Source: an uncultured Desulfomonile sp. (GTDB taxonomy: Bacteria > Desulfobacterota > Desulfomonilia > Desulfomonilales > Desulfomonilaceae). Taken from it: DNA of 32,000 nucleotides. The position numbers and the translations under genes were made by a program. The stretch covers positions 1-32,000 of the forward strand of contig CAJBEZ010000064.1 of assembly GCA_903952205.1 (NCBI GenBank). Reading direction: 5' to 3'. Positions within the stretch are counted from its first letter, which is position 1; each line of letters begins with the position of its first letter. The notes beneath the pieces were generated by a model that saw nothing but the letters and a program-made list of their open reading frames with translations, was not told where the DNA came from and did not search any database. Below are positions 1,839-3,590 of the stretch, one piece after another.

Positions 1839-3590
1839 TTATGGCGCGGATGCGTAAATTATCGAGACAACTCCCGCCAGAACAAAGTTCCCATCGACAA
1901 GCCCTTCGAAAAGAAGCCGGTCCACCAGATGCCCTTTTTTGTAAAAGTCGACAAAAAACTTAAAGATCATCACATTTATTAATAAGAGGTAGCCAAATTT
2001 TGACGTCCACCCTTCCAAGCTCGACAAGATCAAGAGGCATGAAAGGAATAAAAGGGTGATGTTAAGAATTTTTTCAGTGGCGCGTCCGCCGAATAAAATT
2101 GGTATGGTTTCCCGACCGCCTATCCGGTCCCCCTGGATATCTATTAGGTCTGACAATGCCGTCCGCCAAAATACCATTCCCGCTGCGAAAATGAATGAAA
2201 CTACTATAGACGAAATTCCCGCCCACAGTTCACCTGAAAATGAAGGGATGATAGCGGCCGACATAGCCCACCCGATTGACACCAGCGGTGTCTTTGACCC
2301 TGGAATATCCTTTAATGATGACCATCTGCCCCCAAAAATCCGCATAGAAACTAGAATCGGAAGTGGATAGAGAATCCCGGTTACAATCATGCTCATGACC
2401 ATGATCATTGAAAGCCACCCGAGAAAATACGAAATCAATACGGACATCAAGGCCGCAACTCCACCTATGGCCCGCAGTATTTTCTGATGTCGACTATAAA
2501 ATTCAGCGATCTCCGGCGTGTTAAATCTAAGGGCGCCTGAACTTTCCTGTATCCGATTGATAAGATGCATTGAAAATACAAATAATGCCGTAACAATCGC
2601 CGCGGTAAAATCTACTTTGTTTTCCTGTAGAGCCGAACAGGCAAGAGTAAGGCCTGCTCCTCCCAGCGCCGCCCACATATAGGTCATTATCGTATAGTCG
2701 GCGAATAGTCTGAGTTTCGGATATATACCGGATCTGGTTTTGAGATCAATTTGTCTAAGTTTCTCCACCAGCGTTCTGATTTGCCAGTTGGGTGTACTAG
2801 CGCCCGCAGTTATCCCTATTGCTCTAATTCCATCAAAATCAGCAGGAAGTACCTGGTCAGCAGTCTCCACGTGTCGCACGCGGACTCCCTGCTCAAGGGC
2901 CACCTGAGCGAGTCGAATTGTATTGCCTGATCTCTTTCCCCCCACCACAATTATCATATCCACGCCCTGCGACAACGATTTTACTTCAGCCTGCCGCTTT
3001 ATGGTCGAATCGCAAATTGTGTTATATACGTGAAGAATAAGTCCCTGGTCCCTGAGATGTTGTACGATTTTTTCAAATTTCTCAGGCTCCTGGGTTGTTT
3101 GGGCTACGACGCACAGTTGTCTGTCGGCAGGAATCTGATCCAGTCTTGAGATCTCCTCCAGACTGGAAATAGAAATGCCACCAGATTGAGCAAAGCCGCT
3201 CAGACCTCTAACTTCCGGATGATCCTCATCTCCAACAATAACACAGTAATCTCCCTTTATTGAGTGCTTCTGAATTAAGGCTTGAACCCTCTTGACTCTG
3301 GGACAGGTAGCGTCAACGATGTAAACACCTTTGGCGTCCAGCGCCAGCCTTTCTTGAGGCGAGATCCCGTGGGCTCTTATTATGACAGTCCCAACATGAA
3401 CCTGATCAATTGAATCAACTTGAGAGATGCCCCTGCTGTTCAACAGATCAATGGTCTGAGGATTGTGTATTAACGGTCCATACGTGACTGTTGGAAGAGG
3501 GGGTTGTTGCCGGTTCAGATCGAGAGCCATGTCAACGGCTCTTCGAACACCCATGCAAAAACCAGCGGTTTTGGCAATTTGAATTCTCAT
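1839..3590 (-). CDS. ispH: 4-hydroxy-3-methylbut-2-enyl diphosphate reductase (IspH/LytB) fused to a C-terminal polytopic UbiA-superfamily-like prenyltransferase domain
   Basis: Residue numbers follow the 584-aa ORF-track translation that starts at 3593. The N-terminal ~285 aa align by eye with IspH and keep the three cluster cysteines (GFCMG, ATCPRV, ICDST). From about residue 296 there are roughly nine hydrophobic helices. These carry LKDIPGSKTPLVSIGW and a canonical DxxDxxxD-GxxT motif (DLIDIQGDRIGGRETIP, nt 2127-2150), typical of UbiA-family enzymes. The ATG at 3590 overlaps the upstream gene's TGA (TGATG). The ORF track instead starts at a TTG at 3593. Confidence 0.85.
   Translation of the reverse strand: MRIQIAKTAGFCMGVRRAVDMALDLNRQQPPLPTVTYGPLIHNPQTIDLLNSRGISQVDSIDQVHVGTVIIRAHGISPQERLALDAKGVYIVDATCPRVKRVQALIQKHSIKGDYCVIVGDEDHPEVRGLSGFAQSGGISISSLEEISRLDQIPADRQLCVVAQTTQEPEKFEKIVQHLRDQGLILHVYNTICDSTIKRQAEVKSLSQGVDMIIVVGGKRSGNTIRLAQVALEQGVRVRHVETADQVLPADFDGIRAIGITAGASTPNWQIRTLVEKLRQIDLKTRSGIYPKLRLFADYTIMTYMWAALGGAGLTLACSALQENKVDFTAAIVTALFVFSMHLINRIQESSGALRFNTPEIAEFYSRHQKILRAIGGVAALMSVLISYFLGWLSMIMVMSMIVTGILYPLPILVSMRIFGGRWSSLKDIPGSKTPLVSIGWAMSAAIIPSFSGELWAGISSIVVSFIFAAGMVFWRTALSDLIDIQGDRIGGRETIPILFGGRATEKILNITLLFLSCLLILSSLEGWTSKFGYLLLINVMIFKFFVDFYKKGHLVDRLLFEGLVDGNFVLAGVVSIIYASAP

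Follow-up and report, generated by a model that had tools for sequence, protein, structure and literature searches.

The window analyzed here, a 32,000-nucleotide stretch of DNA from an uncultured Desulfomonile sp. (contig CAJBEZ010000064.1), carries on its minus strand an ispH-ubiA fusion gene (1839..3590, with the stop codon at 1839-1841), in which IspH is joined to a membrane domain of the UbiA type. The gene is the Desulfomonilaceae orthologue of a published group of IspH-UbiA fusions, and the architecture is already known (PMC4746011). In the list of open reading frames (ORFs), the frame extended without interruption over 1839..3593 and gave 584 amino acids (aa) if started at TTG. The ATG at 3590 is most likely the start, resulting in a 583-aa product, because homologues begin with MRIQIAK or MKIRLAK and the fusion itself with MRIQIAK. 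The start context was AGG GTT TGA TGA GAA, and the ATG of the fusion shared one base with the TGA of the upstream gene (TGATG, 3588-3592). Residue numbers throughout are those of the 584-aa (TTG) translation. An earlier note on this DNA, made from the sequence alone, had described a single uninterrupted ORF combining IspH with a membrane domain; this was confirmed, its coordinates fitting the 583-aa product, and both halves passed the Pfam cut-offs of the two families that the note had named, LYTB and UbiA. In public data, proteins that were 96 to 97% identical were found as P0001 and at locus L005, and complete genomes annotate the fusion protein merely as IspH.

The IspH (LytB) domain comprised residues 2-286 (2736..3590, minus strand) and was recognized by Pfam, NCBIfam, and Foldseek alike. 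Pfam LYTB (PF02401) matched residues 4-279 (profile positions 1-266 of 267) with E=2.1e-83 and 280 bits against a cut-off of 24.5, and NCBIfam TIGR00216 (ispH) gave 265.5 bits at a cut-off of 187.85. Conservation was evaluated in an alignment of 88 full-length fusions that were 30 to 66% identical to the window protein. The first [4Fe-4S] ligand, Cys13 (codon 3555..3557, minus strand), was assigned from alignments and was Cys in 76 of the 88 fusions, with an alignment gap in the remaining 12. The second and third ligands, Cys97 (3303..3305, minus strand) and Cys194 (3012..3014, minus strand), were invariant (88/88), as were H43, H75, H125, E127, T167, S222, N224, and S266. The counterparts in Escherichia coli IspH are C12, C96, C197, E126, T167, H41, H124, S225, and N227, and the window protein has the whole set of [4Fe-4S] Cys and catalytic Glu, Thr, His, Ser, and Asn residues. 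When the AlphaFold model was searched with Foldseek, the best match was Aquifex IspH (3dnf; 39% identity, target-normalized TM-score of 0.85), and E. coli IspH (3ke8) matched with a TM-score of 0.82, consistent with the trefoil three-domain alpha/beta fold. Judged from these residues, the IspH half is complete and catalytically equipped, in agreement with the earlier reading of an apparently functional enzyme with all three Fe-S cysteines, and it would act as a working (E)-4-hydroxy-3-methylbut-2-enyl diphosphate (HMBPP) reductase.

The membrane domain occupied residues 306-584 (1842..2678, minus strand). It was recognized by Pfam, AlphaFold, and Foldseek, and it was designated as the CDD type PT_UbiA_5 because it is homologous to the fusions so classed in PMC4746011. 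Pfam UbiA (PF01040) matched residues 315-552 (profile positions 9-233 of 250) with E=1.4e-11 and a score of 44.6 bits (gathering cut-off, 34.2). As modeled by AlphaFold (pLDDT 94 to 95; for a model of this domain alone, pLDDT 94.1 and pTM 0.92), the domain contained nine transmembrane (TM) helices, and its top Foldseek matches in the PDB were those of AfUbiA (4tq3/4tq4; E of ∼1e-5, TM-score of 0.61 to 0.67), followed by ApUbiA, digeranylgeranylglyceryl phosphate (DGGGP) synthase (7bpu, 6m31), UBIAD1, and the membrane phosphoribosyltransferase 8j8j. As modeled, the fold of the membrane half is that of UbiA in a divergent form, and the nine-helix UbiA-like domain proposed earlier was thereby borne out. 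No equivalog cut-off was reached among the NCBIfam models of characterized UbiA subfamilies (UbiA/MenA, DGGGP synthase, and chlorophyll synthase): the best was PRK13591, with 35.5 bits versus 238, while the DGGGP synthase (DGGGPS) models gave 15 to 26 bits versus 280 to 353 and ubiA_other 11 bits versus 181. The predicted topology is N-in, with loops L2-3, L4-5, and L6-7, which hold the conserved polar residues, placed in the cytoplasm on the side of IspH; this placement follows from helix parity counted from the cytoplasmic IspH and from the positive-inside rule, which was satisfied with 11 Lys plus Arg inside versus 2 outside.

In the model, the position of the first Asp-rich motif closed TM2 on the cytoplasmic side, and the second motif occupied the end of TM6 together with L6-7. 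AfUbiA likewise has its motifs where TM2 and TM6 reach the cytoplasm (PMC4106721). The first motif, extending from the end of TM2 into L2-3, reads N346-R-I-Q-E350-S-S-G-A-L-R-F-N358-T-P360-E-I (2508..2558, minus strand), with N346-RIQESSGA354 at 2532-2558. This non-canonical NRIQESSGA had been noticed earlier at 2544-2558, a span that covers NRIQE, and the departure from the canonical motif was found to be family-wide. Canonical NDxxDxxxD was seen in 0/88 fusions, nor was it found in the window protein. Instead, the family consensus was N-[R/H/N/Q]-x-x-[D/E]-...-N-[D/E]-P-x-R, with N346 in 82/88 and D or E at 350 in 62/88, followed by N358, D/E, P360, any residue, and R. In AfUbiA, N68 and D72, at positions 1 and 5 of NDxxDxxxD, are direct Mg2+ ligands (PMC4106721), and all four AfUbiA Mg2+-ligand positions were kept in the family, in the window protein as N346, E350, D485, and D489. 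Because the segment is strongly conserved in the family and retains these ligand positions, motif 1 looks remodeled rather than decayed, and the conservation pattern indicates a diphosphate site that is probably still functional. The Arg in place of the second Asp, together with the lost third Asp, suggests altered handling of the diphosphate or metal, not loss of function. The term "degenerate," previously applied to this motif, needs qualification, being overstated in view of the conserved segment and the retention of positions 1 and 5.

The second motif, D482-L-I-D485-I-Q-G-D489-R-I-G-G-R-E-T-I-P498 (2100..2150, minus strand), is canonical, as had been claimed for 2127-2150, which is its core DLIDIQGD, and contains the DxxxD element as D485-I-Q-G-D489. 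D489 was present in 87/88 fusions, D485 in 68 (plus 5 with E), and D482 in 70 (plus 8 with E), while G493, E495, T496, and P498 were at least 90% conserved. No region of the protein was more conserved than L6-7, the motif 2 loop (0.70 versus 0.56 for IspH overall). A family signature was also found in L4-5, L427-K-D-I-P-G-S-K434 (2292..2315, minus strand; cytoplasmic by helix parity), in which P431, S433, and K434 were at least 90% conserved. The further near-invariant polar residues were Y409, K434, R477, E495, and T496. Searched against PDB sequences, a narrow profile of the membrane domain (A2) gave no match, and for a broader profile (A4) the sole match was chlorophyll synthase (9sas/9sau), which was marginal (E 0.5); it served to map the motifs and was not counted toward membership. 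In this alignment, the family sequence 'ilNrltDreaskfNdPeRa' was paired with 'tlNDFYDRDIDAINEPYRP' of chlorophyll synthase (NDFYDRDIDAINEPYRP). On the basis of this marginal profile alignment, the membrane domain is putatively related to the ChlG/DGGGPS-like branch; on this mapping it retains motif 1 positions 1 and 5 along with the N-x-P-x-R tail.

The two halves were connected by a linker and pre-TM1 helix, residues 287-305 (2679..2735, minus strand), which was variable in sequence (mean column conservation of only 0.33 across the 88 fusions) and tightly constrained in length. The distance from W270 to G311 was 41 residues in 68/88 fusions, with a range of 38 to 44, and the AlphaFold model placed a helix at 291-303. 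The full-length model, built from a 91-sequence alignment, reached a mean pLDDT of 95.2 and a pTM of 0.92 and predicts that IspH and the membrane domain form one rigid two-domain body with a fixed inter-domain geometry. The fixed linker length agrees with the high pTM, which itself indicates a rigid arrangement.

A profile of the membrane domain only, searched against 1.84 billion proteins, matched 1759 representatives at E≤1e-3, of which 173 also passed E≤1e-30. Nearly every full-length match was 560 to 600 aa long and aligned at ∼290 to 580, i.e., was fused, and the fused proteins were retrieved at E values of 1e-30 to 1e-63. The shorter matches mostly began inside the C-terminal helix of IspH or in TM1/TM2 and hence corresponded to fragments of fusions. 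With nearly all full-length matches fused and most of the short ones fragmentary, this UbiA subfamily seems to occur hardly anywhere outside fusions with IspH. Among the short matches, P0245 (307 aa, starting METFKFGNNLGKKQ, without an IspH remnant) may represent the subfamily in free-standing form, and a few others, Met-initiated inside TM1, possibly do so too. The gene context of P0245 could hint at the membrane domain's own function.

The search for orthologous fusions that the earlier note had proposed was productive. With the whole protein as the query, at least 120 clusters (90% identity level) were retrieved, which were 51 to 96% identical, ∼570 to 590 aa long, and all provided with both Pfam domains; they included the 96% match and the complete genome of Desulfomonile tiedjei (CP003360). 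Named members belonged to the Desulfomonilaceae, Syntrophobacteria, and other Thermodesulfobacteriota, and some lay in metagenome-assembled genome (MAG) bins labeled Nitrospinota, Nitrospirota, and Planctomycetota/Brocadiales, labels that call for caution. This wider distribution was taken from the membrane-domain representatives and the cluster names, as the genome scan employed subfamily-specific peptides, so that the 57 loci it found were of the Desulfomonilales type only and were uninformative beyond that order. Of these, 54 contained an intact, in-frame IspH-UbiA gene. The locus L005, from a Danish soil MAG, was 97 to 98% identical along its length and had the gene order in common with the window. 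The three broken loci (L055, L058, and L061) came from MFD long-read-derived MAG assemblies with frameshifts in the fusion gene, and the breaks look like assembly errors, not pseudogenes. L061 was also considered as a distant relative (29% identity) and rejected, the assembly being frameshifted and tuf split as well.

The reading that we consider probable, on conserved residues and the modeled geometry, is that a working IspH is docked, on the cytoplasmic side, to a UbiA-fold enzyme that is still active and binds a prenyl diphosphate. Binding of the prenyl diphosphate with Mg2+ by the membrane half is probable because N346, E350, D485, and D489 are kept and Y409, K434, and R477 are conserved. 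The prenyl group would next be passed on by the membrane half to an acceptor, while IspH, if docked above the mouth of the cavity, would deliver dimethylallyl diphosphate (DMAPP) or isopentenyl diphosphate (IPP) at a high local concentration, an inference already drawn in 2015 (PMC4746011). Channeling of DMAPP or of HMBPP itself, as suggested in the earlier note, is conceivable.

Several observations weigh against this reading. IspH itself releases C5 units, but the donors used by most UbiA enzymes are longer and come from separate synthases, and proximity may therefore give little kinetic benefit. Motif 1 has lost two of its three Asp (position 2, now Arg, and position 9), and the sub-lineage of the window has in addition Glu at position 5 and Ile for the Arg of the N-x-P-x-R tail. 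The match to solved UbiA structures was moderate (TM-score of ∼0.6 to 0.67, root mean square deviation of >5 Å, 12 to 14% identity), and the membrane domain scored far under every characterized NCBIfam UbiA equivalog. Full-length expression has failed for the proteins of three species (PMC4746011).

In the main rival reading, the UbiA-like domain would be a catalytically dead relic and a mere membrane anchor, holding IspH close, for example, to an electron donor associated with the membrane or to later enzymes of prenyl-lipid synthesis. This rival, for which the family-wide absence of two motif 1 Asp and the lack of a match to any characterized UbiA equivalog speak, and of which the plain form, membrane localization, was considered by Rao et al. 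too (PMC4746011), is judged unlikely. An anchor would have no need for the conservation of N346, D/E350, D482, D485, D489, R477, K434, Y409, E495, and T496 across several phyla at ∼30% identity or for a motif 2 loop more conserved than IspH itself, and the motif 1 positions that were retained are exactly those of the AfUbiA Mg2+ ligands (PMC4106721). The conservation pattern in the alignment thus disfavors a dead anchor. Distinctly doubtful is a more specific proposal, in which PT_UbiA_5 would be an obligate partner of IspH that attaches DMAPP or HMBPP from the docked IspH to a membrane acceptor, yielding a lipid or cofactor that bears a short prenyl group and is specific to anaerobes (Desulfobacterota and, by MAG labels, Nitrospinota and Brocadiales); the Arg for Asp in motif 1 would then mean that the diphosphate is held in another manner, possibly with one metal. 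The notion of two separate genes united at the junction by an error of assembly or sequencing was rejected as virtually impossible, as independent assemblies were intact and in frame at 54/57 loci, the two domains co-occur in at least 120 clusters, including that of the complete D. tiedjei genome, and the fusion was published in 2015.

The remaining alternative is drawn from the gene neighborhood. Directly upstream, overlapping the start of the fusion, lies a gene for a MocA/YgfJ-like nucleotidyltransferase (3590..4225, minus strand; Pfam NTP_transf_3, E=5e-27), which scored 140 bits with TIGR03310 (molybdenum cofactor cytidylyltransferase), under the cut-off of 186. Beyond it lie genes for a GT21-type membrane glycosyltransferase, weakly HpnI-like (4289..5482, minus strand; Glyco_transf_21, 25.2 bits versus 21.7; HpnI, 73.7 versus 310), an HlyD-type membrane fusion protein (5562-6659, minus strand), and OEP (6640-8034, minus strand). 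This OEP/HlyD/GT21 block (4289-8034, minus strand) may serve to glycosylate and export lipids and was syntenic with the fusion in many Desulfomonilales. One could picture a lineage-specific envelope-lipid module of the fusion, the translationally coupled MocA-like gene, GT21, and the HlyD/OEP exporter, in which a prenyl lipid produced by the UbiA domain is nucleotide-activated or glycosylated and then exported. The TGATG overlap would fit such a module, as would GT21 being a lipid-directed glycosyltransferase family and the recurrence of the neighbors: the MocA-like gene was directly upstream in 45/53 Desulfomonilales loci and GT21 lay upstream in 37/46, with HlyD and OEP genes beyond it in many. 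However, a sub-clade of 8 loci is without the MocA-like gene, GT21 abutting the fusion there, D. tiedjei is without GT21, HlyD, and OEP, and the MocA-like protein is nearest to molybdenum cofactor cytidylyltransferases, with no known lipid role. The tuf and tRNA genes are equally syntenic, so that shared descent accounts for the gene order. Nor was any such neighbor found beside three distant-tier fusions, which were accompanied instead by DUF502, by ParB and FapA, and by a genuine IspD ∼4 kb away. The module is therefore considered very unlikely, and a functional tie to the MocA-like and GT21 neighbors was downgraded. With the neighbors differing in the distant tier and GT21, HlyD, and OEP missing in D. 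tiedjei, the MocA-like/GT21/HlyD/OEP genes were treated as lineage-specific synteny and a weak lead at most.

On the downstream side, genes for tRNA-Thr, -Tyr, -Gly, and -Thr (1324..1768, minus strand; ARAGORN) were located between the fusion and tuf. This classic arrangement of tRNA genes and tuf (12-1768, minus strand) directly follows the fusion, with tuf found there in 27/29 related loci, and related genomes continue past tuf with rpmG, secE, nusG, rplK, rplA, rplJ, rplL, rpoB, and rpoC. In the Desulfomonilales, the fusion gene is thus part of a housekeeping setting that runs from the MocA-like gene through ispH-ubiA, the four tRNA genes, tuf, rpmG, secE, and nusG to rplK and onward, and its IspH is probably the cell's housekeeping copy. 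Two side observations concern related proteins and loci. At L063, IspD, the cytidylyltransferase of the methylerythritol phosphate (MEP) pathway, is encoded at 5124-5813 on the strand opposite to the fusion and may be a remnant of MEP pathway clustering. Two 587-aa fusion orthologues, P0068 and P0107, also bear a precomputed match to PF00994 (MoCF_biosynth, molybdopterin-binding), which is curious beside the MocA-like neighbor; they have no space for a third domain, and the match is probably a weak overlap on the alpha/beta fold of IspH.

The remainder of the window, at 10011-31974, held ordinary chromosomal content, including glycogen synthase, an aconitase-C-like small protein, MutS, a MacB/FtsX permease, PNPase, an M16 peptidase, SMC, and an alpha/beta hydrolase. 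Also encoded were a sulfotransferase (12411-13622), an 862-aa FAD-oxidase/4Fe-4S/CCG fusion (17821-20409), and a TPR plus retropepsin-like protein (24640-25818). Four ORFs of 153 to 249 aa, at 8348-8815, 9082-9543, 26332-26844, and 30514-31263, gave no match in Pfam.

Fusions of IspH and UbiA were described as "Rosetta stone" proteins by Rao, O'Dowd, Li, Wang, and Oldfield (Chem Sci 2015, PMC4746011), and the earlier note, which had treated the architecture as unfamiliar, is not supported on this point. They reported 47 IspH-UbiA hybrids, chiefly from Desulfobacterales, assigned the UbiA part to PT_UbiA_5, of unknown function, and found separate UbiA/MenA genes in the host genomes. Their proposal was that the UbiA domain places IspH at the membrane, where it supplies IPP/DMAPP, and IspH-RPS1 fusions were covered as well. 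In the literature searched, nothing later than 2015 dealt with IspH-UbiA or PT_UbiA_5, apart from a single further paper that mentions them in passing. The earlier note had also allowed that the fusion might turn out to be a common, already characterized family; it proved to be common, among anaerobic relatives of sulfate reducers, and already described, which bears out half of this. Taken as a previously unseen architecture, the finding matters little, the fusion being published, widespread, and present in complete genomes. What is new here is the near-exclusive fusion to IspH, the wider distribution by MAG bins, the fixed linker length, and the prediction of a rigid body in which every conserved loop lies on the cytoplasmic side with IspH. 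The analysis adds residue-level and distribution detail to a known family, not a new kind of system, and its residue map (the surviving motif 1 positions, the L4-5 signature, and the fixed linker) provides concrete targets for mutagenesis. Identification of the acceptor would define a new isoprenoid branch point right at the last step of the MEP pathway, and a natural example of the coupling of an enzyme to a membrane enzyme, usable for engineering, would follow too.

Compared with the fusions of Rao et al., the window protein has the same N-terminal IspH and C-terminal UbiA-like domain of roughly nine TM helices in one polypeptide, the same length of ∼580 aa, and an anaerobic Desulfobacterota host. 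Homology of its membrane domain to those of other fusions was established by the profile search and the common signature residues, the profile retrieving the wider family at 30 to 39% identity with the same motif signature. It differs in L2-3, which reads NRIQE-SGA-RFNTPE versus the commoner N-R/H-x-x-D...KFNDPxR. The "two DXXXD repeats" of PMC4746011 do not hold at the canonical motif 1 position; the phrase probably refers to D-K-Y-N-D, ∼8 residues downstream in Desulfobacterales-type sequences and absent in the sub-lineage of the window. The statement that all are in sulfate reducers is too narrow, given the MAG-bin labels of Nitrospinota, Nitrospirota, and Planctomycetota-Brocadiales.

The archaeal enzymes AfUbiA and ApUbiA (PDB 4tq3, 4tq4, and 4od4) share with the window protein the nine-helix fold, the cytoplasmic motifs at TM2 and TM6, and the Mg2+-ligand positions. 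Identity to them is only 12 to 14%, however, and the window protein has Arg for Asp in motif 1, no third Asp, and a long L4-5 with its own LKDIPGSK signature. With the chlorophyll/DGGGP synthase branch it has the patterns N-x-x-x-D...N-[D/E]-P-x-R and D-x-x-D-x-x-G-D-R-x-x-G-x-x-[ST]-x-P in common, and its best NCBIfam matches were DGGGPS-type prenyltransferases, although the E value was 0.5, the NCBIfam scores were 11 to 35 bits against cut-offs of 180 to 350, and nothing pointed to a tetrapyrrole or glycerol-phosphate acceptor. Like the IspH-RPS1 proteins of anaerobes (NF000907), the window protein is a complete IspH with a C-terminal fusion, and its IspH fits model positions 1-280 of 671. 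In contrast to them, it is without S1 repeats (288.9 bits versus 624), and the partner of IspH is a membrane protein, not an RNA-binding module.

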